Source of the DNA: Candidatus Atabeyarchaeum deiterrae
GTDB taxonomy: Archaea > Asgardarchaeota > Atabeyarchaeia > Atabeyarchaeales > Atabeyarchaeaceae
DNA length: 64,000 nt
Assembly (NCBI GenBank): GCA_037310415.1
Contig: CP147780.1
Span: 992,001-1,056,000, forward strand
Reading direction: 5' to 3'
The notes under the pieces were generated by a model. That model was given only the letters and a program-made list of their open reading frames with translations, ran no database searches and was not told where the DNA came from. Positions 7,283 through 42,453 of the stretch are shown one piece after another (within the stretch, counting starts at the first letter, position 1; every line of letters starts with the position of its first letter). Both the position numbers and the translations under genes were made by a program.

Positions 7283-7615
7283 ATGCCAAAAAGCGAACCG
7301 TTTGTCGAGGAAGTAGAGCGAAAACTAACCAAGTTGAAAAATGGTTCTGGTGTAGAAGGCGTTTTCATAATATCAAAAGAAGGGTTGCCTATAGTGAGCG
7401 TCGGCCCTCAGGGTGAGGATGCTCTTGAGGTTATTGGTCCAATCTCCTCAACACTTCTCCAAGTTCTTAATGAGAACAGGAGAAAACTGTTCTGCTACTT
7501 CTTGGGCGATGGAGTTCTGTTGGCAGCAACATCAGACGACAGAGGAAAATTGAACAAAGTCGAGAAATGGGTTAGAAAGAACTCTAGGGAGATTTATGAG
7601 CGGTTCCTGAAGTAA
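7283..7615 (+). CDS. Roadblock/LC7-like small protein
   Basis: Helix, then GVEGVFIISKEGLPIVS, helix and LLAAT strand; typical roadblock pattern but shortened. Confidence 0.55.
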   Translation: MPKSEPFVEEVERKLTKLKNGSGVEGVFIISKEGLPIVSVGPQGEDALEVIGPISSTLLQVLNENRRKLFCYFLGDGVLLAATSDDRGKLNKVEKWVRKNSREIYERFLK

Positions 7616-29919: not shown

Positions 29920-31101
29920 TCACCTCCCCCCTGATTCTTGTCGGTCTTCTAGGGCTGCCACTTCGCACGGTATCCTAGCGAGGATCCTGGATGCCCGAAA
30001 AGCTTCTCCTACAATACCTAACTCGTTTTGCTCGTTGGTCAGAGTTAGATCTCCTGGACCAAATGCTACGACATCCTTTGCGAAACCAGTTGATTTCAAT
30101 TCCCTAGCTGAGATGGGAAAAGGTAGCCATTCAAAGATAGGATCAAACCCCGTTGACTTGAGAAATGCCTGAGACAGGGCAGCAACGATGGGGGAATGAG
30201 AATCTTCCCGGAATGGTTCTTCTTCGAATATTTCTTCGATGGATGTTTCGCACCCACTCCCCTTCGTAACTTCAACCACAACACTTGACAACTTGTCCTT
30301 AAAGTCGGTGTGCGAGAACTCTGGAGGAGTTGACGCGTAATACTCAATCTCAACAGGAATAGACTCTCCAATTATCGCGGGGTCGGTCGCCTTGATATGT
30401 GTGGGTGTCATCGTTGGATACCCGAGGAGGAATCTTGAAAGAATCAGGGGGGGCGCTTCACCCACCTCGACTGGATATATGCTGTGCTTCGGTCTCATTA
30501 TTTCATTCAAGTTCTCGCCAAATCTCATGAGTGCGTTCCAGGGGTTCTGGCCGAGCCACGGAAAAGCAGGGTGGTGTAGTTTGCCTTTAATGCATAACTT
30601 GAAGACTATGCATCCCTTCTGGACACTGCATGCTCTCAGACCTGTTGACTCCACGACAACGAGATGCGTTCCAAATATCGTGTTACCATAATCGCCTGCT
30701 GACGCTCCCTTGACAGGATCTACAGTATGTCTTTGATACTTGCGTTTCTCTGCCTCATCTCCCAAGATGACCAAGAACACGTCAGTCTGCGGGGGGCGGT
30801 CCTCAGATAATGTTTTCAAGGCAAGAGTTGCTGAAGCAATGTTGGCTGCGAGCAAACGTGAGTAAGTCTCGTTGTTGACTTGCCTATCTTCCCCTGAAGA
30901 AGATGCTACTGAGAATGTTTTCCTGGCAGTCACAAGGAAAGCCGTGGAAGGAGAGCGATCATGCCCTCTCACGACAAAATAACTCGCATTGCCGGTGCAT
31001 TTCGCTGGAATTCTCTGAATCCCCTTAAGAGATGAAAGATAGTCGTCAACCAAGAACCTGGCTTCGCCTTTCCCTAACGAATTCAAGATCTCGTGATACA
31101 A
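29920..31101 (-). CDS. M20/ArgE-DapE-like protein lacking metal ligands
   Basis: M20 dimerisation motif QKGC...KGKLHHPAFPWLGQNP, SPIVAAL, VAFGPG; HxD, DxK, EE and final His absent. Confidence 0.65.
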   Translation of the reverse strand: MYHEILNSLGKGEARFLVDDYLSSLKGIQRIPAKCTGNASYFVVRGHDRSPSTAFLVTARKTFSVASSSGEDRQVNNETYSRLLAANIASATLALKTLSEDRPPQTDVFLVILGDEAEKRKYQRHTVDPVKGASAGDYGNTIFGTHLVVVESTGLRACSVQKGCIVFKLCIKGKLHHPAFPWLGQNPWNALMRFGENLNEIMRPKHSIYPVEVGEAPPLILSRFLLGYPTMTPTHIKATDPAIIGESIPVEIEYYASTPPEFSHTDFKDKLSSVVVEVTKGSGCETSIEEIFEEEPFREDSHSPIVAALSQAFLKSTGFDPIFEWLPFPISARELKSTGFAKDVVAFGPGDLTLTNEQNELGIVGEAFRASRILARIPCEVAALEDRQESGGR

Positions 31102-31418
31102 CTTGAGGGTTTCTTCTCTGAACGTCGTATCGGCTACGTCTATTTCGACAGTGCTGATTGTTCAACACTCCCCTTCGAGCATCGTCTTCAATTAAGATGA
31201 GTGAAACCAAACTTATAACGATCGCACGGGTCTGCCACCTTGCTATTCCTCTGAATTGGGTGAATTACAAGAACAACGGGATTCAAACCACTGAGATAGA
31301 TTGAGTCGCAGGATTGTGCTCTTTGTATAGCTAAAGCTCCCCAAAAAAGTTAAATACCGCTCTACTCATCAATTATCTTCGCTTACTCGGATCAGAAAAC
31401 CTTGGTTGATGAGCTAGA

Positions 31419-31853
31419 ATGCGCAAGTCGCCTCGTGGAGAGTTCGCCGCAAAAAGGATTGTCGAGAAACGAAAGCATTTCAGGTGGCGCAGCGCCAAGT
31501 ACAAGGTTAGAGCACTGCACATCAGAGAAATGACTCCAACAGAGGGCACTCCGCAGGCATCCGGCATCGTCCTAGAAAAAGTAGGACGAGAACCCAGAAA
31601 ACCCAGCTCCGGAGTAAGAAAATGCGTAAGAGTCCAACTCATCAAAAACGGCAAAACCGTCACAGCCTTCATCCCCTACGACGGAGCCCTAGACTACATC
31701 GACGAACACGATGAAGTAATGATCGAAGGCATTGGGGGCAGAAAAGGGGGGTCAATGGGGGATTTGCCGGGCGTGAGGTATCGGGTTATTAAGGTGAATG
31801 GGATTTCGATCCAGGCCTTGTGGTTGGGCAAGAAGGAGAAGCCCATGAAGTAG
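31419..31853 (+). CDS. rps12: 30S ribosomal protein uS12 (archaeal S12/S23), divergent and not in an operon
   Basis: [47 protein letters not shown]. Confidence 0.93.
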
Positions 31854-31994
31854 GGTTTCCTTTCTCTCCGTGTTTCTTCTTCTGCTGCTGTTCTCTACTT
31901 TCTGTTTAGTCAGATGGTCTTGATCGTGCATATCGGTTGTCCGTTTTGATGGGTGGTCATGGCGGATGTGAGTCGTTCGTTCTCTTTTATGTTT

Positions 31995-32312
31995 TTATGG
32001 CCAAGGCTTTTTGAGGAATTCTTTTTCCTGTTCTTTGTCATCTTCTAGGTCTCTTTTTGTGACTATTTCGTAGCAGCGGTCTCCATGTATTTCTTCAATG
32101 TGATCCCCATGCCTCTCATCTATGTATGGGAATGATACTCGTATTACGTACTTGTCCTCTGCGATTGAGATTGCTTGTTTTGCTTCTTCTGGTGTCAGAC
32201 CTTCCTGAACGAGTAGTTGTTCCATCTTGTCTGCTTTACAGAATTTGCTTTTGGTCTTGGTGAATACTTGTTTTACCGTTGAAATAAGTTGGTCTTCGTT
32301 AACGGCTACCAC
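31995..32312 (-). CDS. Hypothetical protein, possible small winged helix; overlaps the LAGLIDADG gene by 14 nt
   Basis: Overlap with 32299-34980; three helices plus hairpin pattern; acidic tail. Confidence 0.6.
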   Translation of the reverse strand: MVAVNEDQLISTVKQVFTKTKSKFCKADKMEQLLVQEGLTPEEAKQAISIAEDKYVIRVSFPYIDERHGDHIEEIHGDRCYEIVTKRDLEDDKEQEKEFLKKPWP

Positions 32313-34980
32313 TCTCCATCATACTCTTGAGTTTTTCCTGTTTCCTGCTCTGTGGAAATCCGATTTCGTCGCAGAACACTCTATTATCTCGTTTCGAAGT
32401 TATTTGAAGAGCCCATGAGACGCTATAGCCATCTTCTCGCTTGTATATCTCTATTGGGTGTTTATTGACCGTTATGCCGAAATCCTCATGGAGCATTCTT
32501 GCCTCCGACTCCAAAAGTCGTGGACGCTCAGGTTGCAGTGCGTTTCGGATGTCTAGGGGTAAGTCTTTGAACATGCAATACCTCACATGTTTCTCACGGA
32601 CAACGACTTTGGGTACCTTTTCTCTCCAGTGTTCGCTCATTGCGTCGAGTCGGTTCCTCTGCCCGTCTGACAGTCCCTGGGTCACGTCTACAGCTCTCGT
32701 GAGGGTGGTTATCCCGCAGTGAGGTGAGGGTGATCCTTCGTCGCCGAAGGCTTGTTTTAGCCACTCTCGTTTCATTTCGATTGACCCGTTGCGTATGAAC
32801 GTGGGTATGTCTGGGTTTTGCAGAATGATTCTACCGGTTATTGCTCCTGATCTCTGCAGGACGTGTCCAACTATGTCTGTTGTTGCACGCACTCTCGCGA
32901 TTCTGCCGTCGGTGTATTCTCTGTCGAGTATGTTTGGCCTGCCGAATACGTTTGTTAGTGATTCTGCGATTCTGTTTCTTTGTTCTGCGTCCTTGTTTGT
33001 GTAGTCGAATCTTGGTCCTGCGCCTTTTGGTGTGTGGATTGATCCGTCTGAGAATCTTGCAGCGTGGAGTCTCGCTCCGTCGGTGGTGTTCAGTTTGAAG
33101 GGGAGGTTTGGGTTCTCAACCGCTCTGCGGTTTCCTATTGCCGTGATGTGGCTGTTCGACTCATCGAGGTCTCTGCCGAGGTATCGTAAGATCGGGATCA
33201 GTTTGTTAGCCACCATGCCGTCCATTCGTTCACTCAGTTGGTCGTTTAGATATTTGATGCAGATTTGTGTTCCTCTGTCTTTTAGCTCCTGTCGGAGTGG
33301 GGTTTTCCCTCCTGCTTTATTGATTGCAGCTTGGAGTAGTTCTTGTTTGTACTCTTTGTCAAGATATACCATTGTGGTTAGTGGTAGTGCGTACCATGGT
33401 GTTTCGTAGGGTGGGGCTGTCTTGTTTTCTTTTGGTATGCGGAGGAATTCTTCTCCTTGGTCTGTTTTGTATCTGTAGAGTTCTAAGTTTCCTATTCTTT
33501 CTTGCTCTACTGTTGTGATCTTGTAGTTTTGGTTTTCGTGGGTTATTGTGTGTCCTTCTCCTTCGAGCTTTAGTACTGTTTTGTCTTTTCGCTTTTCTCG
33601 TGGGCTTGTTCTTTCTTTGAGTGGTTCTGGTGAGAGGACTATGCTGTTTGTTTTCACTCTAAAAGTGTTGGCTTCTCCGTCTCCTCCATTTGTGAGTAGT
33701 TCTTCTGCAATTTTCTTGCTAAGGTTTATTGCTCCGTCTTCGATTCTTGCTACTACGAGTCTTTCTCCTCTTTCTGTTTGGATAACCATCTTCGCGTAGT
33801 CCCCATTTCTAACGTTGAACCCTAGTTCTCCAAGTTTGTCGTGGAGTTGTATCTTCGTCTCGCCATTGGTCGTGGCTGGTTCGACTTGGATGCTTTGCTT
33901 CCAGGGTTGGCCCTCAGGTCCCCTCACATTTAGAACATTAACATCTACTTTGTCTCCCACTTTGATGCCCATGGATTCAACGTCCGCTCTCGTGGTGTTT
34001 GCTCTTGTCCCTTTGACCGCTTTGAGCTCAGCGATGGCTTGAACCCCATTCTTCTCGAGAAGTGTCGTTATTATGTCTCTTCGGTGGAACTCCACATTTG
34101 TCATGGGGTTAAGCTTTAGGTAGTATGTCTGTTGAGCTTGGCTGTAGTCTATTGTTGCGTCGGGGTTTCGGGTACTCTCAATGAACGCATCAATGCTGTA
34201 GATTGCTCCTTTCCACTTTATGGCTATGTTTTGGCTTTCGGATGAGCGAAACTCCCTCAGTTCTTGCTCTAAGTCCTTCCCAGTCATGTGGGATAGTTGT
34301 TGTAGATCATGTAAGGCGGTGTGTTCTTTGTTGCTCTCCAGGTAGGATAGTTGGCTTTCACTGTATCCAAGCTCATCTGCAAGTTCGCGTCTGCTGAGAC
34401 CCAGTTCTGTGCGCCACTCTCTAACTAGTTCGCCTGCACCAACTACCCTAGCATCGTAAACCCTTATCTTTCCCAGCTCGGTTGCGTAGGTTGCTTGTTC
34501 CGCTTCCGCTCTGTCGGGGTTACTATGGTGCTCCTTCTTGGTCCTTGTGGAGGCGTCACCGTCACCTCGTATCTTGGTGTTGTCTTTTGTCTCCCCCTGC
34601 CCGCGCATGTCCACATTATTGGGATGTTGCTGTCGTTGCTGCTCTGATCTTTGCGGGTGTTCTCCTATTGCTTCTCTTTTCCTATCTGCGTCTTCTTCTT
34701 TTTGCTTCAGTCTGTCACCATCGGCGCTGGGATTCTCTGATTCAGTGTTAGTCGACTGGTTTCTTATCTCTGCACTTATCCTATGTCCCTCCATCTCGTC
34801 TACCTTGATCGTTGTTTCATTGCTCTCGACAGGACTATTCATTGACCTCTCATATTCTTCCAAGCACCATTCTGACAGGTAGTCCCATTCGCCATCTTCT
34901 TCGCGCGGGTTTTCCGCTTTTTCCCGTAGCTTTTCTCCCTTTTCACCAGGCAACCTCTCGCCCTCCAACAGCCTTGTCAT
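32299..34980 (-). CDS. Large free-standing protein: disordered charged N-terminus, XRE-HTH, and C-terminal two-motif LAGLIDADG (DOD-type) endonuclease domain
   Basis: VREWRTELGLSRRELADELGYSESQLSYLE; GARLHAARFSDGSI, YTNKD, KREWLKQAFGDEGS, FCDEIGFPQSRKQEKL; no intein splice residues. Confidence 0.75.
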   Translation of the reverse strand: MTRLLEGERLPGEKGEKLREKAENPREEDGEWDYLSEWCLEEYERSMNSPVESNETTIKVDEMEGHRISAEIRNQSTNTESENPSADGDRLKQKEEDADRKREAIGEHPQRSEQQRQQHPNNVDMRGQGETKDNTKIRGDGDASTRTKKEHHSNPDRAEAEQATYATELGKIRVYDARVVGAGELVREWRTELGLSRRELADELGYSESQLSYLESNKEHTALHDLQQLSHMTGKDLEQELREFRSSESQNIAIKWKGAIYSIDAFIESTRNPDATIDYSQAQQTYYLKLNPMTNVEFHRRDIITTLLEKNGVQAIAELKAVKGTRANTTRADVESMGIKVGDKVDVNVLNVRGPEGQPWKQSIQVEPATTNGETKIQLHDKLGELGFNVRNGDYAKMVIQTERGERLVVARIEDGAINLSKKIAEELLTNGGDGEANTFRVKTNSIVLSPEPLKERTSPREKRKDKTVLKLEGEGHTITHENQNYKITTVEQERIGNLELYRYKTDQGEEFLRIPKENKTAPPYETPWYALPLTTMVYLDKEYKQELLQAAINKAGGKTPLRQELKDRGTQICIKYLNDQLSERMDGMVANKLIPILRYLGRDLDESNSHITAIGNRRAVENPNLPFKLNTTDGARLHAARFSDGSIHTPKGAGPRFDYTNKDAEQRNRIAESLTNVFGRPNILDREYTDGRIARVRATTDIVGHVLQRSGAITGRIILQNPDIPTFIRNGSIEMKREWLKQAFGDEGSPSPHCGITTLTRAVDVTQGLSDGQRNRLDAMSEHWREKVPKVVVREKHVRYCMFKDLPLDIRNALQPERPRLLESEARMLHEDFGITVNKHPIEIYKREDGYSVSWALQITSKRDNRVFCDEIGFPQSRKQEKLKSMMESGSR

Positions 34981-35096
34981 TGCTGTCGGTGTGCGTCGGC
35001 AGGTAGATTGGCGCGTGTAGTTTGGCTGGCCGATTGTCTTATTGCTGGTTCTCTTTCAACAATGCTGACAAGCTCTATGTGTGCAAGTGGATTCGC

Positions 35097-35288
35097 TCAC
35101 TCGTTGTACTTATTGGTGGCTTTCTTGAAGATCTTTAATGCCAGCGTCGCCATCCTATCGGGTTCCCCTGTGTAACTTGCTGCCTCGACCACGATAAGAT
35201 CCACCAATCGCTCAACGTTCCTTGCTTTATAAGCCTTAGAAACGGCTTCACATGGGTTCTTGGTTTTCTTCTGGACCAAATCCAGCAT
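35097..35288 (-). CDS. Small hypothetical protein
   Basis: ATG ORF with AAGGT upstream, divergent from lhr; weak support. Confidence 0.35.
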   Translation of the reverse strand: MLDLVQKKTKNPCEAVSKAYKARNVERLVDLIVVEAASYTGEPDRMATLALKIFKKATNKYNE

Positions 35289-35394
35289 AGTTACCTTTTG
35301 TTGTATTCAGATTGGTTAACGCAAGATTTTTTATCCAGTCTCGACATAGCTAGATTTTTGCGACGAAGTATGCTCTCAGCGAGTGACGTAGCAG

Positions 35395-38300
35395 ATGACT
35401 ATTAGCTTCATCAAGGAGCCTCCATACTCAGAGAAAGAGACGCTCGATAGGTTGCGCCCATATGTGGCTCAATGGTTCAGAGAGACGTTTCAAGAGATGA
35501 CTCCCCCTCAGACATACGCCATTCCATTGATTCACGAGGACAGAAATACGCTTATATTCTCGCCCACCGGCTCTGGAAAGACGCTAGCTGCGTTTCTTTC
35601 AATGATTGACAAACTCTTCGCAATGGGAGAAAAAGGAGAGCTAGATGAGACCATCTATGTCCTCTATGTCAGCCCTCTGAGAGCACTAAACAATGATATC
35701 AGACGCAACTTGATGATTCCACTCGAAGGCATAAGAGAAATCTCACGCAAGGGCAATCTAGAGTTACCCCTCATCAACCTAGCTGTGAGGACTGGGGACA
35801 CACCTCAAAATGAGCGCAGCAAGATGCTTCGACATCCCCCTCACATATTGATAACAACTCCCGAGACGCTGTCGATTATACTTACTTCACCCAAATTTAG
35901 CCAGAAATTGAAGACGGTCAAATGGGTGATTGTTGACGAGATCCATGAGTTATGTGACTCAAAGAGAGGGGTTCACTTATCCTTAAGCCTTGAGAGACTG
36001 CAAAACCTCATCGGGGTTGACAAAGAGTTCGTGAGAGTAGGTTGCAGTGCGACTCAGGCTCCCGTGGAAGAAATAGCAAGGTTCCTAGTGGGATACCGTG
36101 ATGATGACTCATTCAGAGACTGCGACATTGTCGACGTTTATTCGACTAAATCCCTTGACATAAGAGTTCTGTGTCCGGTAGCAAATCTTGCGTATGCTAG
36201 CTACGACTCTGCGACTGATAGCATGTACGACCTTCTCAAGAAGCAAATCGACTCTCACAGAACAACTTTGATATTTACAAATACTAGAAGTGGAACTGAG
36301 AGAGTCTCTTTCAGGCTTAAGGAACTGTACGGAGAAGAGCATGTCGACCAACTGGCGGCTCACCACGGCAGCTTGAGCCGTGACACTAGACTCGATGTTG
36401 AGGAACGCCTGAAAAAGGGAATGTTGAAAGCCGTCGTAAGCTCAACTTCACTTGAACTCGGAATAGATATAGGATACGTTGATCTTGTCTCTCAAATTGG
36501 AAGCCCAAAGAGCGTCGCCAAAGGCCTACAGCGAATTGGGAGAGCGGGTCATGCTCTGCATGAGACATCAATTGGACGACTACTGGTCTTTGATCTAGAC
36601 GACCTTGTAGAGTGCACTGTTCTGGTCAAATCAGCTTATGAAGGCAAGATCGACAGAGTTGCAATCCCAAGGAACTGCTTGGATGTTCTATGTCAGCACA
36701 TAGTGGGCATGAGCATCCAATCTAGATGGTCCGTTGCTGACGCATACCAACTCGTCAAGCGTTCATATTGCTACCATGAACTATCATTTCAGGATTTCAT
36801 GAGCGTGGTGAAATACCTTTCCGGCGAACATGTGAGTCTCGAGGAGCGAGGAGTCTACAGGAAGATCTGGTTTGACGAGGAACAACAAGTCTTCGGGCGG
36901 AAGAGAGGCGCCCGAATGATATACTTCTTGAATGTGGGAACTATTCCAGAAGAAGCTAATTATAGAGTTCTCCTTGAGGAATACAGGAATCCGCTAGGTC
37001 AGCTGTCTGAGAGCTTTGTTGAACGACTCCAACCCGGCGACATTTTCGTTCTCGGCGGCAGGGCGTATGAGTTCAAAAGGACAAGCGGAATGAAAGTTTA
37101 TGTTGGACCAGCCTTCGGTAGACGTCCAACTGTTCCGTCATGGAGTGGCGAGATGCTTCCAAGAAGCTTCGACTTGTCATGCGAAATCGGCAAATTCCGC
37201 CAGGAACTATCAGACAGAATAAGGAAGGAAGGGCTAGATGTTGCTCGAAGATGGCTTCTGGAGGAGTACAAAGTAGATGAGAGATCAGCCGAGAGCATTC
37301 TGGTTTATTTCAGAAATCAACTTGCGATCACTGGAACTGTGCCAACCGATAAGAGGATCATAATTGAAGGATACATCGACAAAAAAGGTCGGCTCAATAT
37401 AGTCTTCCATAGCGTGTATGGCCGACGGGTGAATGATGCTTTAAGCAGAGTATATGCCTATGCTGTAAGCAAGCTCGCAAGAGCTAACGTGGCTACCGCA
37501 ATTCTCGATGATGGATTTGTGATAACCCTCCCAGCTGGGCGCATGATTGATCTAGCAGGAATCCCTCCACTTGTGACACCTGATAATGTCGGGGTATACA
37601 TACGCAAAGCGATCAGAAGAACTGAACTCTTCAAGCAGAGATTCCGCCACTGTGCAGTCAGAAGCTTCATGGTTCTGAAAATGTACAAAGGGTGGGAAAT
37701 CTCTGTCAGTAGACAGCAAACAAGAGCCGTGAAGGTTCTTGACTTGTTGGAAGGGACGGATGACTTTCCGGTGGTGAAGGAGACCTACAGAGAGATACTT
37801 GAGGACGTAATGGACCTACCGAACGCCACGAGCATTGTCAAGGGAATATATGACGGTGAGATAGATATCCGAGTTCTTCCCCTTACTGATGTTCCATCCC
37901 CATTCTCCCATAGCTTGATCCTTGTGGGCGCGGAAGACGTTGTCCTGATGGAGGATCGCGGAGCGCTCCTTAGGGAGTTGCACCGCCAGGTTCTCGCGCG
38001 AGTTGTCGGTGAAGCGGGTGAGGCGCTATTCTCAGAAGAGATAGTCCAAACTCTGTATAATCAGAGGCAGCATGTTACTCCCGAGAGCCACGGGAAAGTT
38101 AAAGAAGATATTCCAAGAATACTTCACGATATAGGACCATCCGAACTCTTCCGAGACACCTACCCAACAATCCTAAACAGAATGGTTGTCGACCCTGACA
38201 CTACTAGGAACTGGGCAAGAGAGCTTGTTGCCGACAGACAGCTGATTATAATTCGAACAGCGAAAGGAGAACTGGATGGCGTCACAATAGACGACTTCCC

Positions 38301-41300
38301 GATGTATTATCATGTCTTCAAAACCTCGTTGAGTGACCCTGACGAGCTTGAGAACAGAATTATCAGAACCCTTAATGAGAATCCTCTTCAGACGAATGAA
38401 CTTCAGGAAATCTTGAATGTCAAAGACGCTGAGCTCAGGAGGGCTTTGCGAAGACTTGAAAGAGCAATGTTGATAGTCAGATCCAAATACGTGCCAGAAG
38501 GATCTGCCAAGGATGAAGTCCGCGAGACAACGTGGAATCTGCTATCAAAGCATATGCCAAAAGAGATCATACTCCGACTTGACGAAACGGATCCTGAAGA
38601 TGAAAAGGAAAAAGCTGCAAGACAATTCCTTTGGTCCCACGGTCCTTGCATCTCATCAGAAGTGGGACTCTGCCTCAACATGACAGAAGAAGAAGCTGAA
38701 AGAATTCTCAAACGACTAGAAAGAACTGGCGAGGTCTTCAGCGGCAACTTCATAGCTTCAAAACCCCCCGCCCAATACCTAATTGCCGAAGACCGAGAGC
38801 TACTGAAGCAGTTAGAAAAGGGAAGAGAGCCAACAAGATTCTCCGAAGCCGTTGTTACGCAATTGGTACTGGAGAAACAGCATCTGACTTCAACAACTAA
38901 GGGACGAGGAGAAGAAGATGTCATAAGAATCATTGGTGAAATCGGGCCGATACAGACACACAGAGCGCTATACCACCGAATTGAAGGATTCGACTGGGAT
39001 TCGCTCCGACGACTTCGCGCTGGCGATAGGAGAATAGTCGTTGGAAGATTCACAGAAAGAGGATTATCATACATAAGCACGAGCGATCTTCCAATTTACT
39101 TGGCTCTACACGAAACCTCACAGAGCAACCTCTCAAACATTGATCAGATGATACTGAACACGATCATACGCGAGAATCCGATAACTAAAGGCAGGATAAT
39201 CGCGTTAATGGCGGTGGACAAGCCAACTGCGGAGGAGAGCTTGGAGAGACTGGAAGAGTCCCTTTTAATCGTCAGAACTGTTCCTCCCGAGACAGAGATG
39301 GAAATCCAGCAAATAACTCTCTATGAACCTATGGAGAACTACGCCTCTCAGTTCAAGAAACTGAGTAGAGAGGAGGCGCTCAGAGCGATTGCCCTTAAGA
39401 CCATTGAGACGCATGGACCGATTACTATCCAGGGAATAATATCACTGACTAATCTCCCATACGACGAAATAGAAGGCACTCTCACTACACTCAGAAGAGA
39501 AGGGTTGATCTTATCAGGGCAATTCATTGAAGGCATACCCATCGAAACTTACGTCATCGCACGCGACCTTCCAATGCTAAGAGAACTCAGCGACCGATTA
39601 TCCGCGAACACTCCAAGAGATGACGAGATCCCCTACGATGGCAGAATAATGGTAGACGTACTTAGCAACCTAGATCCATATACATGGAGAGTTGCCCAAC
39701 AGTTAACTGATCTATATGGAAGCTCATTCCTCAACCCAATAATTGTTGATGGAACGCTTGTAGGTGCAGCTGATGTTCGCGTAACCCAGGATCTTCTGCA
39801 TGTGGCAGATATGAAGTTGTCAGATGTCTTATCCGAGAGACTCAATTTGGTTAAGAGAATAGGGCAGCGATTCATCGACATCGCATTATATTATGGACTC
39901 ATGGCAGTGGAGGTCGAGTTCATTTGGGGTCAACCTGCGGTATCGGACAAGAATGAGAAGATCGTGAAGACCTTCACTGAACTCGGCTTTGAGATCGTTG
40001 GCGACAGGCTATGCTGGGGAGAGACGCCATCAGAGATTTTCGACGAACATGTTGTCAGAGAATTCCAGTTGAAAAAGCAACACGTTCACCCAGAGACACG
40101 AGGCAAGACGAAGCAAGACATAAGCAGAATAATAGATGACATAGTTGGCGTACGACTCCCATGGGAAGACAAGCTCAACATAAGAGTTGAAGGACTAAAA
40201 CGAGAATGGGTGGAGGAACTACTGAAGAAAGATAGGGTCCTTGTTCAAGACGCCCTGTTCAGTTTGAAACCAATGATTGTACCTGTAGCGGATTGGTCAA
40301 CCTATTGGTGGGCTAGCAAGACACCTTTGAAGTTGGGCATTGACCATATTAGCCTTCTCAAGATCATCAGGGAGACTGGTCCAATCTCAAAGAAGGCACT
40401 GATCAGAAGATCTCTGATGCATCAACTCGATGCCGAGCAGATTCTTTCAGTTCTGTCTGACATGAGACTGGCCCTGAGCATAGGCGGCTTAGCAGCTGCA
40501 AGCGTCTGGGTCGCGACAGACAAATGGTTTCCACCGACTGTAAAAGCACGAGAATATGTCGAGCCCCATGACGCAAGAAGAAAGATCATCCTCAGGTTTC
40601 TTAGGAGTCTGGGTCCTCTCACCGTATCACAGCTTCGTGAACTTACAGGATTTCATTCAAGGCAAGTGAGACTCTGTCTCATGGAACTCAGAGACCAAGG
40701 AAAGATTGGACTAGGAAGATTCTCAAGATCTGCAAGGACCCAAATACAATTTGTAGCTCTTGACGACTTGGACGAACTTCACTCACTTTCGTCTACCCTG
40801 AACAGAGGTTCAAAGCGGCTAGGTAGGAGCCTTACAATCCCTCCAGGAGACCCACTCTACTATGCGATTAGGGAGGAGATCAAAGACAACTTCAAAACAT
40901 CTTGGTGCTACTCAATCTGCTTAGATGACGGTTCAGTGGCGGCGGTTTACAAATCGAAAGGTGTTAAGAAAAGACACTTCGTGGTAACAGATCTCCTAAT
41001 ACTCTCCATTCATTGTGACAACAAAGATGTCATCAATAACGTCATTGACCAAATTGATGAAGTCGCCCGGTATAGCGGATCACTCGACATTGAACTCAAG
41101 ATGATCAATGAAAAAGCAGTCACCTATGAGGGTAACCAGGGTATTGTGGAACTCTTCAAACTAAGAGGATACAAAGTTGGAGGGACAGTTCTCTACAAGG
41201 CCTTCTCAGTAGCTGTTCAGCCCAGTGGTAAGGAAGTGTTTGCAGAAGATGTCTGCATAGAGTTCCTCATGCAGAGACAACATCTCGCTCCACTCTACCA

Positions 41301-42453
41301 GGGAAAAACAAAAGAAGACATTTTGACAATCCTCCACGACATAGGACCAATCCAATGGTCTGATTCGATAGCAATTAGAGTTGAGAAGTTTAACCCGAAT
41401 GACTTGGACGAACTGAAGTGGAGAGAGCGAAAAATAGCACATGGGAAGTTTCTAGGCGAAAACATAACTCAAGTACCAGTAGATGAGCTGCTCGATTACT
41501 ATTATGCTTCAAGACCACGCTTTCTCGTCCTTGGGTACGACGAACAAAGGGTGTTGGACATACTACAGGAATTCGGACCATTGGCTGAGAAGGAGATCGC
41601 AGCGAAAATGAATCTGGACATAGACTCTGCACAAAGAGCTATCGAGAACACAGAGAAAGCTGCCAGAATCGTCAGAGTTAGGAGAAGTGAATCACTTTAC
41701 TCATCTGATGTTTGGCTTTACGACGTGATAGACCACTATTTGCCGAATGGCATAGCGGAATTTGAAAGCACAAATCCCAAAGAATCACGGAAGAAGATAA
41801 TACTGAAATTCCTTGCCGCAAATGGACCGGTCAGCCTGAGACAGATTGAAGAATGGTCCCACATCGAACCTTCGGAGATAAAACCAGCGCTGTCAGAGCT
41901 CGAGGCGGAAGGAAAGATAACATCAAACGTCTACATTGAAGGAATCGCAGGAAGAAGGTACGCCAGAAAAGAAGACTTGTCAGAGCTCCGAAACCTTGAA
42001 GAACTATATGTTTCGCAGAAATTGAGTGGCGAACCACCCTATTATGTCATAGTCCCAAGCTATGACTCTATGGTTAGAACATGGAAAGACGAGCTTCTCA
42101 GAAGATTCTCTATGGGGTTAATAGAGCTGGGAGCAGACTATTACATGCTTGCACTCAGATCGGGTAAATCTGCAGCAGCGATGCAGGTGCACTACGACAT
42201 AAACACTCTACGAATACATGACATGGAGATACTTAGTGACTTTGAAAGTGAGACCACGTCTTCAGTCATCAAGGAAATCGAAAAAGTAGCGCGTGAATCA
42301 AGAAAAATGGAGATTCAAATCGAACACATAGACGGCAGAGCAGTTGAAGATAAACTGAACAGACAACTACATGATCGATTTCTCGGAAGCGGGTTCCAAA
42401 CTGATAATAAGGGAGTTCTGCACAAAGATGTTGCGAAGCCCGATCGCGCCTAA
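35395..42453 (+). CDS. lhr: Lhr-family SF2 helicase with four C-terminal tandem AlkZ/HTH_42-like winged-helix modules
   Basis: PTGSGKT, SPLRAL, RTGDT, TTPE, DEIH, SAT, HHGS, LELGID, QRIGRAGH, GTIP, PSW.GE, PSPF; repeats beginning xxQH. Confidence 0.9.
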   Translation: MTISFIKEPPYSEKETLDRLRPYVAQWFRETFQEMTPPQTYAIPLIHEDRNTLIFSPTGSGKTLAAFLSMIDKLFAMGEKGELDETIYVLYVSPLRALNNDIRRNLMIPLEGIREISRKGNLELPLINLAVRTGDTPQNERSKMLRHPPHILITTPETLSIILTSPKFSQKLKTVKWVIVDEIHELCDSKRGVHLSLSLERLQNLIGVDKEFVRVGCSATQAPVEEIARFLVGYRDDDSFRDCDIVDVYSTKSLDIRVLCPVANLAYASYDSATDSMYDLLKKQIDSHRTTLIFTNTRSGTERVSFRLKELYGEEHVDQLAAHHGSLSRDTRLDVEERLKKGMLKAVVSSTSLELGIDIGYVDLVSQIGSPKSVAKGLQRIGRAGHALHETSIGRLLVFDLDDLVECTVLVKSAYEGKIDRVAIPRNCLDVLCQHIVGMSIQSRWSVADAYQLVKRSYCYHELSFQDFMSVVKYLSGEHVSLEERGVYRKIWFDEEQQVFGRKRGARMIYFLNVGTIPEEANYRVLLEEYRNPLGQLSESFVERLQPGDIFVLGGRAYEFKRTSGMKVYVGPAFGRRPTVPSWSGEMLPRSFDLSCEIGKFRQELSDRIRKEGLDVARRWLLEEYKVDERSAESILVYFRNQLAITGTVPTDKRIIIEGYIDKKGRLNIVFHSVYGRRVNDALSRVYAYAVSKLARANVATAILDDGFVITLPAGRMIDLAGIPPLVTPDNVGVYIRKAIRRTELFKQRFRHCAVRSFMVLKMYKGWEISVSRQQTRAVKVLDLLEGTDDFPVVKETYREILEDVMDLPNATSIVKGIYDGEIDIRVLPLTDVPSPFSHSLILVGAEDVVLMEDRGALLRELHRQVLARVVGEAGEALFSEEIVQTLYNQRQHVTPESHGKVKEDIPRILHDIGPSELFRDTYPTILNRMVVDPDTTRNWARELVADRQLIIIRTAKGELDGVTIDDFPMYYHVFKTSLSDPDELENRIIRTLNENPLQTNELQEILNVKDAELRRALRRLERAMLIVRSKYVPEGSAKDEVRETTWNLLSKHMPKEIILRLDETDPEDEKEKAARQFLWSHGPCISSEVGLCLNMTEEEAERILKRLERTGEVFSGNFIASKPPAQYLIAEDRELLKQLEKGREPTRFSEAVVTQLVLEKQHLTSTTKGRGEEDVIRIIGEIGPIQTHRALYHRIEGFDWDSLRRLRAGDRRIVVGRFTERGLSYISTSDLPIYLALHETSQSNLSNIDQMILNTIIRENPITKGRIIALMAVDKPTAEESLERLEESLLIVRTVPPETEMEIQQITLYEPMENYASQFKKLSREEALRAIALKTIETHGPITIQGIISLTNLPYDEIEGTLTTLRREGLILSGQFIEGIPIETYVIARDLPMLRELSDRLSANTPRDDEIPYDGRIMVDVLSNLDPYTWRVAQQLTDLYGSSFLNPIIVDGTLVGAADVRVTQDLLHVADMKLSDVLSERLNLVKRIGQRFIDIALYYGLMAVEVEFIWGQPAVSDKNEKIVKTFTELGFEIVGDRLCWGETPSEIFDEHVVREFQLKKQHVHPETRGKTKQDISRIIDDIVGVRLPWEDKLNIRVEGLKREWVEELLKKDRVLVQDALFSLKPMIVPVADWSTYWWASKTPLKLGIDHISLLKIIRETGPISKKALIRRSLMHQLDAEQILSVLSDMRLALSIGGLAAASVWVATDKWFPPTVKAREYVEPHDARRKIILRFLRSLGPLTVSQLRELTGFHSRQVRLCLMELRDQGKIGLGRFSRSARTQIQFVALDDLDELHSLSSTLNRGSKRLGRSLTIPPGDPLYYAIREEIKDNFKTSWCYSICLDDGSVAAVYKSKGVKKRHFVVTDLLILSIHCDNKDVINNVIDQIDEVARYSGSLDIELKMINEKAVTYEGNQGIVELFKLRGYKVGGTVLYKAFSVAVQPSGKEVFAEDVCIEFLMQRQHLAPLYQGKTKEDILTILHDIGPIQWSDSIAIRVEKFNPNDLDELKWRERKIAHGKFLGENITQVPVDELLDYYYASRPRFLVLGYDEQRVLDILQEFGPLAEKEIAAKMNLDIDSAQRAIENTEKAARIVRVRRSESLYSSDVWLYDVIDHYLPNGIAEFESTNPKESRKKIILKFLAANGPVSLRQIEEWSHIEPSEIKPALSELEAEGKITSNVYIEGIAGRRYARKEDLSELRNLEELYVSQKLSGEPPYYVIVPSYDSMVRTWKDELLRRFSMGLIELGADYYMLALRSGKSAAAMQVHYDINTLRIHDMEILSDFESETTSSVIKEIEKVARESRKMEIQIEHIDGRAVEDKLNRQLHDRFLGSGFQTDNKGVLHKDVAKPDRA
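38062..42450 (+). repeat. Protein-level tandem repeats within lhr (270, 400, 400 and about 390 aa)
   Basis: Conserved His codons of QRQH, EKQH, KKQH and QRQH at 38071, 38881, 40081 and 41281. Confidence 0.85.

Follow-up and report, generated by a model that had tools for sequence, protein, structure and literature searches.

The 64-kb window analysed here, taken from a single 2.76-Mb contig of the Candidatus Atabeyarchaeum deiterrae genome (G000), carries a cassette of about 3.47 kb inserted between rps12, the gene for ribosomal protein uS12, and a gene for an Lhr-like helicase. The largest gene of the cassette, located on the minus strand, encodes a multi-domain protein that ends in a LAGLIDADG nuclease domain, and is followed by a small partner gene. 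The locus was compared with two further Atabeyarchaeia genomes, Atabeyarchaeia-1 (G001, CP147779.1) and LC30 (G002), and with loci and proteins from metagenomes. All coordinates refer to the window and amino acid (aa) numbers to an 893-codon frame. The features of the locus are as follows.

31419..31853, plus strand: rps12 (uS12); NCBIfam NF003254, E 3e-65
31854..~35320, minus strand: whole inserted cassette, ~3.47 kb, measured against the empty rps12-Lhr site of LC30
31995..32312, minus strand: gene of the small, winged-helix-like partner (105 aa), overlapping at its start the end of the nuclease gene by 14 nt
32299..34980, minus strand: nuclease gene, multi-domain; longest open reading frame (ORF) 893 aa, likely TTG start at 34953 giving 884 aa
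32302..33096, minus strand: double LAGLIDADG nuclease domain, aa 629-893; AlphaFold (AF2) model, Foldseek and VIA matches
32737-32739, minus strand: codon of the predicted catalytic residue E748, in FGDEGS (LKQAFGDEG)
33046-33048, minus strand: codon of the predicted catalytic residue D645, in FSDGS (LHAARFSDG)
33139..33366, minus strand: second XRE-like helix-turn-helix (HTH), aa 539-614; VIA Z 5-6.2 to many XRE-family repressors, model residues 85-160
33361..33576, minus strand: highly conserved beta subdomain, aa 469-540 (GEEFLHIP, PPYETPWYALP); invariant columns, AF2 strands at a predicted local distance difference test (pLDDT) score of ~90
33625..33894, minus strand: AbrB-like beta barrel (swapped-hairpin / double-psi type), aa 363-452; VIA match to PhS018 (2GLW)
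33904..34131, minus strand: first beta unit, aa 284-359, with MGIKVGDKVDV; strands in the model, one weak match (Z 5.4)
34228..34449, minus strand: XRE-type HTH, aa 178-251; Pfam HTH_3 E 6e-9, VIA Z ~7 to SinR, DdrO and C.BclI
34471..34980, minus strand: acidic leader, aa 1-170, 52% E/R/K/Q/D/N, net charge -15; conserved N-terminal motif EWCLEEYE, kept in the A2 consensus
35097..35288, minus strand: orf63, 63 codons, ATPase-gene remnant; tblastn with the intact 1064-aa ATPase (L002) matches aa 983-1031
35395-42453, plus strand: Lhr-like helicase gene, 2352 aa; C-terminal extension long and repetitive; identity to the Atabeyarchaeia-1 orthologue 73%

The nuclease gene

The frame at 32299-34980 is uninterrupted over its 893 codons and its product ends in ...MMESGSR. 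The N-terminus of homologues aligns at MP.E.GEK and a GGAGG-N10-TTG motif is present at the TTG at 34953; these homologous N-termini, together with the GGAGG about 10 nt ahead of the TTG codon, make an 884-aa product likely. Hence, the ORF proposed in the initial annotation is real, but its length of 893 aa is probably an overestimate. The gene is indeed free-standing, as no intron or intein context was found around it, and convergent on rps12, the stop codon of the partner gene lying 141 nt from that of rps12. A composition unlike that of the flanks had also been described; this is borne out for strand skew, with an A+C content at 4-fold degenerate sites of 0.69 compared to 0.53-0.56 in host genes, but not for G+C content, which resembles that of the flanks. 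The closest named relatives are found in the Asgard archaea, in Atabeyarchaeia and Njordarchaeota.

An AF2 model of aa 455-893, built with 22 homologues (pLDDT 88.9, predicted template modelling score 0.89), resolves three parts, namely the beta subdomain, the second XRE-like HTH and a two-lobed LAGLIDADG domain in which alpha-beta-beta-alpha-beta-beta-alpha lobes shape a saddle for DNA, and a second model covering aa 165-470 is of moderate quality (pLDDT 73, about 73-85 in the AbrB-like part). The resulting domain parsing agrees almost point for point with the description in the initial annotation. The nuclease domain matches the intein and intron endonucleases TliVMA (VIA Z 15.8), PI-PfuI (15.6), I-Tsp061I (13.0) and I-DmoI (12.9) as well as WhiA (13.5), and Foldseek assigns a probability of 1.0 to the matches with PI-PfuI and I-DmoI (TMt 0.61-0.70 for I-DmoI). 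The sequence is too diverged for the Pfam LAGLIDADG_3 model, which stays below threshold (15.3 bits, E 0.024; cut-off 22.5), and membership in the LAGLIDADG family is based on fold and motifs. D645 and E748 lie at the C-terminal ends of the two LAGLIDADG helices, the positions that bind metal in this superfamily. When 120 family members taken from 265 library hits were aligned, the D645 position was D or E in 119 of the 120 relatives and the E748 position E or D in all of them. With near-invariant catalytic acids the family looks catalytically competent, unlike WhiA, and the domain is a LAGLIDADG fold, apparently active, that would be expected to cleave DNA; its earlier assignment as a DOD-type endonuclease with both acidic motifs holds.

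The modules that precede the nuclease domain resemble those of repressors. The first HTH, which Pfam HTH_3 detects at aa 186-238 above its gathering score (E 6e-9, 36.2 bits, cut-off 23), also has concurring structure matches at a Z of about 7, and the second helical unit noted previously is an XRE-like HTH by fold alone, at Z 5-6. Of the two AbrB-like units suggested before, the barrel at aa 363-452, which contains the motif LGFNVRNGDYAKM, is matched in the moderate model (pLDDT 73) by PhS018 (2GLW; VIA Z 8.5, root-mean-square deviation 2.1, 79 of 92 residues), an AbrB-like intermediate between the swapped-hairpin and double-psi types (PMC4333400). Foldseek gave no confirmation of the PhS018 match and Pfam has no match in the AbrB-like region. 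For the unit containing MGIKVGDKVDV, the best that can be offered is the match at Z 5.4. The leader was expected to be about 165 residues of disordered, E/R/K/Q-rich sequence; its charged composition is as described, but it is not plain disorder because a motif, PxExGE..EKAEN..EWCLxEYE, is conserved at its N-terminus.

Splicing motifs of inteins were not found, with no C-terminal HN, no extein context and a TxxH that is only partial, in line with the earlier statement that a Hint domain is missing. The beta subdomain at aa 469-540 is possibly an adaptor or a degenerate Hint remnant. The latter is conceivable because T478-x-x-H481 is partly conserved (20/22 and 16/22 sequences) and intein endonucleases align to the model from its residue 29. 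A PDB sequence search with the protein matched the HTH only, and apart from this HTH neither the nuclease module nor the partner nor orf63 is assigned to a family by Pfam, NCBIfam, PHROGs or PADLOC.

A cassette of up to three genes

The edges of the insert were placed by comparison with the empty site of LC30, in which M20 and rps12 are followed by a 208-nt spacer and Lhr. The 70 nt nearest Lhr are common to all three genomes. From the shared block GCAAGATTTTTTATC..., which extends from about 35321, the right edge is placed near 35320. On the left, the alignment ends at the rps12 stop codon and no part of 31854-31994 aligns to the LC30 spacer. The mobile unit of roughly 3.2 kb that had been envisaged thus exists as a unit, but measures ~3.47 kb and includes the remnant of a HerA-like ATPase gene. 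Rfam has no match within 31000-36000, and a conserved leader RNA upstream of the nuclease gene was not found (alifold -4.7 kcal/mol), the conservation in this region being that of the ATPase stump. In LC30 (L063, G002:C140) the match to Lhr ends after 59 codons, and past base 2320 the final ~250 nt of the contig do not continue the gene; the assembly may be broken here, or the end of the contig may be rearranged.

A homologous small gene of ~100 aa stands behind the nuclease gene in most of about 20 loci, including all three copies in A. deiterrae, and at some of them in tandem, in agreement with the proposal that nuclease and partner form a unit. The structural-atlas neighbours of the partner, to be taken as a lead only, are winged-helix proteins (TM 0.5-0.57), and partner divergence follows that of the nuclease. 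Tandem arrays of partner genes are seen at L034:2442-2864 and L045:484-894, with two copies each, and at L044:5900-8200, with four hits around a truncated nuclease gene; they look like the remains of successive cassettes at one site.

On the other side of the nuclease gene, orf63 is no separate gene but the C-terminal stump of a gene for a membrane HerA/VirB4-like ATPase, judged by its similarity to intact copies. Such copies immediately precede the nuclease gene in L002, L039, L040 and L042; at the 939-kb locus of A. deiterrae (L001), the ATPase gene persists in frameshifted pieces. The ATPase has 1064 aa, 4-5 predicted transmembrane helices and PADLOC mad8/HerA matches. One intact copy is present in A. 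deiterrae, at 597-600 kb, and with this query at E<=1e-10 no homologue was found in Atabeyarchaeia-1 or LC30. The fullest form of the cassette therefore has three genes, encoding the membrane HerA/VirB4-like ATPase, the acidic-leader nuclease and the winged-helix-like partner. The intact ATPase gene (L002:4170-7364, corresponding to 597169-600360 of the A. deiterrae genome) has 74% G/T at third positions (A+C 0.25-0.26) and the nuclease gene next downstream has an A+C of 0.55-0.58, a sharp switch at silent sites between co-oriented neighbours.

Distribution, variants and decay

The cassette family spans Atabeyarchaeia and Njordarchaeia. In A. deiterrae, tblastn detects three copies, at 1024 kb (the rps12 copy), 939 kb and 600 kb, and a search of the genome with a hidden Markov model of the family returned only these. 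Atabeyarchaeia-1 has six copies, LC30 at least four, and nine further loci come from metagenomes. Other Asgard families gave remote hits only (G023, G028, G033 and G036) and no relative was found among the IMG/VR viral contigs. Literature searches returned no description of this three-gene module, the paper on mobile elements of Atabeyarchaeia does not mention LAGLIDADG, and nothing relevant was found in the literature on LAGLIDADG in combination with arCOG or with HerA and defence.

Decay is frequent. In Atabeyarchaeia-1 the orthologue at rps12 lies in the same gene order (GTPase, LpxC-like, M20, rps12, nuclease gene, Lhr) and is devoid of the partner, orf63 and the first 106 codons. Truncated nucleases are found at G001_981k, G001_1405k and L044, and an internal stop at L041; other damage comprises ATPase stumps and partners that are lost or truncated. 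Intact nucleases with no adjacent partner are present at G001_1067k, L037 and L035. Values of dN/dS are 0.2-0.5, indicating purifying but relaxed selection.

The family also has a modular side. Three metagenome proteins, P0022, P0188 and P0189, share the leader, the XRE-HTH and the AbrB-like part, and carry a different C-module of ~330 aa (GIDRI...VEEKAE; D...EEK), for which a PD-(D/E)xK nuclease is our guess, prompted by a weak atlas lead to Mrr_cat (0.89). Two of the A. deiterrae paralogues are 89.7% identical in DNA over their 5' 600 nt, that is the ATPase stump, spacer and first ~108 codons (34656-35252 versus L001:8891-9487), and 74.7% identical in their nuclease modules. Together with the lack of this segment in the Atabeyarchaeia-1 orthologue, this suggests that cassette heads were recently exchanged between the A. 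deiterrae paralogues.

Evidence for mobility

That the unit is mobile, as the initial annotation supposed, is indicated by the empty rps12-Lhr site of LC30, by silent-site identities and by further copies that are present in one genome and absent from another. By simple counts at 4-fold sites near saturation, which may be biased by the unusual strand skew of the cassette genes, the nuclease genes of A. deiterrae and Atabeyarchaeia-1 are 0.59 identical, compared to 0.33 for Lhr, 0.32 for M20, 0.32 for the LpxC-like gene and 0.35 for the GTPase (Fisher p 5e-13). Counted in the same way between A. deiterrae and LC30 at the 939-kb locus, the nuclease and the partner have identities of 0.81 and 0.96, and the genes next to them 0.43 and 0.37 (p 5e-18). 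From composition alone, at most 0.31-0.42 would be expected. Silent sites are under no general constraint, given that distant clades of the family do saturate (0.37-0.42, dS above 1.8); in the 600-kb clade, divergence is at the level of the host (dS 1.8). At the rps12 and 939-kb loci the cassette is younger than the genes that flank it. Gene conversion, or a mosaic, as the source of the high silent identity in the nuclease module was ruled out, the pattern being uniform along the module.

For three copies of Atabeyarchaeia-1 and for the LC30_c1/L041 copies, no counterpart is present at the corresponding sites of A. deiterrae. The dcd site is cleanly empty in the latter genome, with 20 nt between the membrane-protein gene and dcd, and the pyrG site is likewise empty and uninterrupted at about 765.8 kb. 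Tabulating the homologues with their neighbours, as had been advised, shows that the copies are patchily distributed and adjoin conserved genes, namely rps12, pyrG/purA, dcd, tmk, nrdD/RtcB, PNP/Endo-dU, a thiolase gene and a radical-SAM gene, and each clade of the nuclease tree retains its own chromosomal site across genomes. Around a sister-clade cassette, a 44-nt duplicate of pyrG codons 1-15 is found on both flanks (L035:4263-4306 and 7331-7374). The inner copy of this pyrG start serves the intact CTP synthase gene, and the outer one, which has diverged further, still borders the original upstream region. At tmk, the thymidylate kinase gene lies on opposite strands in L027 of Atabeyarchaeia-1, with a cassette, and at 857-859 kb of A. 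deiterrae, which has none; this points to rearrangement or gene replacement at insertion. Taken together, the evidence fits horizontal, site-specific spread better than vertical descent with loss. Neither of the outcomes named beforehand as refuting the proposal was observed, namely a C-terminal domain other than LAGLIDADG, or homologues that are fixed, inherited vertically and located away from conserved targets.

rps12 as a neighbour

In rps12, A and C occupy 100% of the third positions over codons 48-95, and G and T occupy 54-83% of them over codons 96-143, a switch that is weaker in Atabeyarchaeia-1 and absent in the cassette-free LC30. The gene is solitary, with no rps7 or EF-2 downstream; LC30 shows neither a solitary rps12 nor the skew. 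Codons 58-108 are 91% identical between the two carriers and 80-82% identical to those of LC30 (p 0.01-0.04), which could be explained by convergence because third positions are limited to A or C. The skew switch, which had been counted as part of the mobile unit, is real; its tie to the cassette is therefore an association and not a mechanism. The further proposal that the element spreads by targeting a ribosomal protein gene is not supported by the comparison, since only two sister copies (A. deiterrae and Atabeyarchaeia-1) adjoin rps12 and about 18 other loci lie elsewhere, making rps12 one site among many.

Homing and its alternatives

We hypothesize that 31854-~35320 is one copy of an integrase-less, horizontally mobile, homing-type selfish nuclease cassette, a reading to which we give a probability of roughly 0.5. 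From the fold and the conserved acids we infer a nuclease that would cut, next to a conserved gene, the allele lacking the cassette; repair templated by an occupied copy would then install the cassette and leave the gene uninterrupted, a process of 'intronless homing' comparable to that of the phage T4 seg and mob genes and the yeast WHO elements. The 884-aa protein could read a long DNA site via up to four units, the HTH, the AbrB-like barrel, the second HTH and the LAGLIDADG saddle, with the small partner probably acting either to restrain the nuclease or to assist it. Over time, copies would decay by loss of the ATPase, the partner or a gene end. The window copy would have gained the extra XRE-HTH and AbrB-like module in its nuclease, and its ATPase gene has decayed to the 63-codon stump.

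Several observations weigh against homing. All three A. deiterrae copies are syntenic with copies in Atabeyarchaeia-1, which vertical inheritance with loss predicts likewise, and the silent-site counts carry the possible bias stated above. A co-conversion gradient in silent-site identity was not found in the 3' end of rps12 or the 5' end of Lhr, nor was a displaced end or stump of rps12, including on the Lhr side. Neither a partner protein nor a membrane ATPase is known to be required by homing nucleases, the conserved leader and the alternative C-module of P0022, P0188 and P0189 look like a toxin architecture, and homing in archaeal cells would demand a route for DNA transfer.

That resemblance underlies a second explanation, which is possible but clearly on the doubtful side, in which the genes encode a nuclease toxin and a cognate inhibitor and form an orphaned part of a conflict system. 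A HerA/FtsK-type ATPase would export leader-sharing proteins with swappable nuclease tips, the small protein would be an immunity factor, and the window copy would be a displaced pair that keeps an ATPase stump. Such a system would account for a partner that is translationally coupled, conserved, sometimes in tandem (two copies at L034 and L045, four hits at L044) and diverging in step with the nuclease, for a leader better conserved between paralogues (89.7% DNA identity) than their nuclease modules (74.7%), for the N-module that P0022, P0188 and P0189 combine with a different C-module (D...EEK; Mrr_cat lead 0.89), and for an ATPase with 4-5 predicted transmembrane helices and mad8/HerA matches. 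It does not predict the scattering of copies beside housekeeping genes at clade-specific sites, and it is at odds with the intact partnerless nucleases (G001_1067k, L037, L035) and with Atabeyarchaeia-1, which has six cassettes, and LC30 lacking a detected ATPase homologue (E<=1e-10). No signal peptide or known secretion tag was detected in the protein and the nuclease module has no PADLOC family. In addition, LAGLIDADG enzymes are usually too site-specific to be good general toxins. Homing is favoured over a toxin because the latter fails on the ATPase-less genomes, the partnerless nucleases and the fidelity to housekeeping sites. The two may be combined, in that the partner may simply check a dangerous homing enzyme.

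A more speculative extension, which we regard as unlikely, is 'motor-coupled homing' by a new integrase-free element with its own membrane DNA-translocating ATPase (HerA/VirB4/Ced-like), by which DNA would be passed from cell to cell, a multi-domain LAGLIDADG nuclease that opens the site beside a conserved gene and a small protein that checks the nuclease. The window copy would then be a stripped rider on the one intact ATPase of the genome and the rps12 skew a scar of repeated break repair.

Less probable still is a domesticated DNA-binding regulator similar to WhiA, for instance of the divergent Lhr gene or of its own operon. Three repressor-type modules (two XRE HTHs and the AbrB-like barrel), WhiA among the structural matches (Z 13.5) and a locus that is syntenic in two genomes with a dN/dS of 0.28 are consistent with this; against it, the catalytic acids are retained family-wide whereas WhiA, one of the LAGLIDADG relatives reviewed in PMC3384342, lost its own, LC30 has no gene at the site and an intact Lhr promoter, and the family is multi-copy (3-6 per genome) and patchy with many decaying copies. 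Equally improbable is an ancient paralogous family inherited vertically with differential loss, in which the low silent divergence would be an artefact, produced either by strand-biased composition or by selection that constrains the DNA or RNA: the synteny of all three A. deiterrae loci with Atabeyarchaeia-1, the host-level divergence of the 600-kb clade (dS 1.8) and the skewed silent sites (A+C 0.55-0.75) would fit, but the composition expectation of 0.31-0.42 lies far under the observed 0.55-0.96, divergence saturates between clades, the flanks are saturated where cassette dS is low, and the pyrG start is duplicated around one cassette.

Relation to known systems

Free-standing LAGLIDADG elements beside conserved genes have been demonstrated experimentally in yeasts (WHO/HO), and intronless homing is otherwise mainly a phage phenomenon. 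The yeast elements (Coughlan et al. 2020, PMC7282813) share with the cassette a free-standing, intein-like LAGLIDADG protein fused to extra DNA-binding domains, a position adjoining (downstream of) a conserved housekeeping gene that is not interrupted, families that include pseudogene copies, movement to other loci and the lack of an integrase. In contrast, their DNA-binding domains are zinc fingers, whereas the archaeal chromosomal cassette has an XRE-HTH, an AbrB-like part and a second HTH, and adds a small partner and, in fuller copies, a membrane ATPase. As to replacement of a gene end, only the duplicated pyrG start in a sister clade was observed here, and cleavage by the cassette nuclease is a prediction. 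The seg and mob genes of T4-like phages also lie between conserved genes and show presence/absence polymorphism among relatives; a break in the endonuclease-free genome, repaired from the carrier, is thought to drive their spread (PMC2988022, PMC2790892). These are, however, single GIY-YIG or HNH genes in phage co-infections, unlike a LAGLIDADG cassette with accessory genes in a cellular chromosome.

The two-lobed fold with an acidic residue ending each LAGLIDADG helix is shared with I-DmoI, I-Tsp061I, PI-PfuI and TliVMA (Z 12.9-15.8). These enzymes are borne by rRNA introns or inteins and have ~180-450 residues, whereas the protein described here is free-standing, 884 aa long and without splicing motifs. 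WhiA likewise fuses a LAGLIDADG scaffold to an HTH, but has lost the catalytic residues, carries the HTH at its C-terminus and is single-copy and conserved, in contrast to a multi-copy, patchy family in which the residues are kept and the HTH precedes the nuclease. EssC of type VII secretion systems with the EsaD nuclease toxin and its immunity protein EsaG, the closest parallel for the toxin explanation, and polymorphic toxin loci resemble the cassette in their FtsK/HerA-type membrane ATPase, a nuclease with a conserved N-terminal part and a small downstream partner with orphan and tandem copies. They differ in that no other parts of a type VII secretion system are present here, the ATPase is missing from most cassettes and from two entire genomes, some nucleases are partnerless, and clades keep to their own sites beside housekeeping genes.

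Implications

If the homing interpretation is true, homing independent of introns, inteins and integrases contributes to shaping the genomes of cellular archaea, and DNA exchange between Atabeyarchaeia lineages is implied. The Asgard version is set apart by additional DNA-binding modules of repressor type, by its partner protein and by its connection to a membrane DNA motor, and a homing cassette offers a testable cause for the odd strand skews in the genome. The enzymes themselves would represent a pool of long-site nucleases with modular DNA-binding add-ons.

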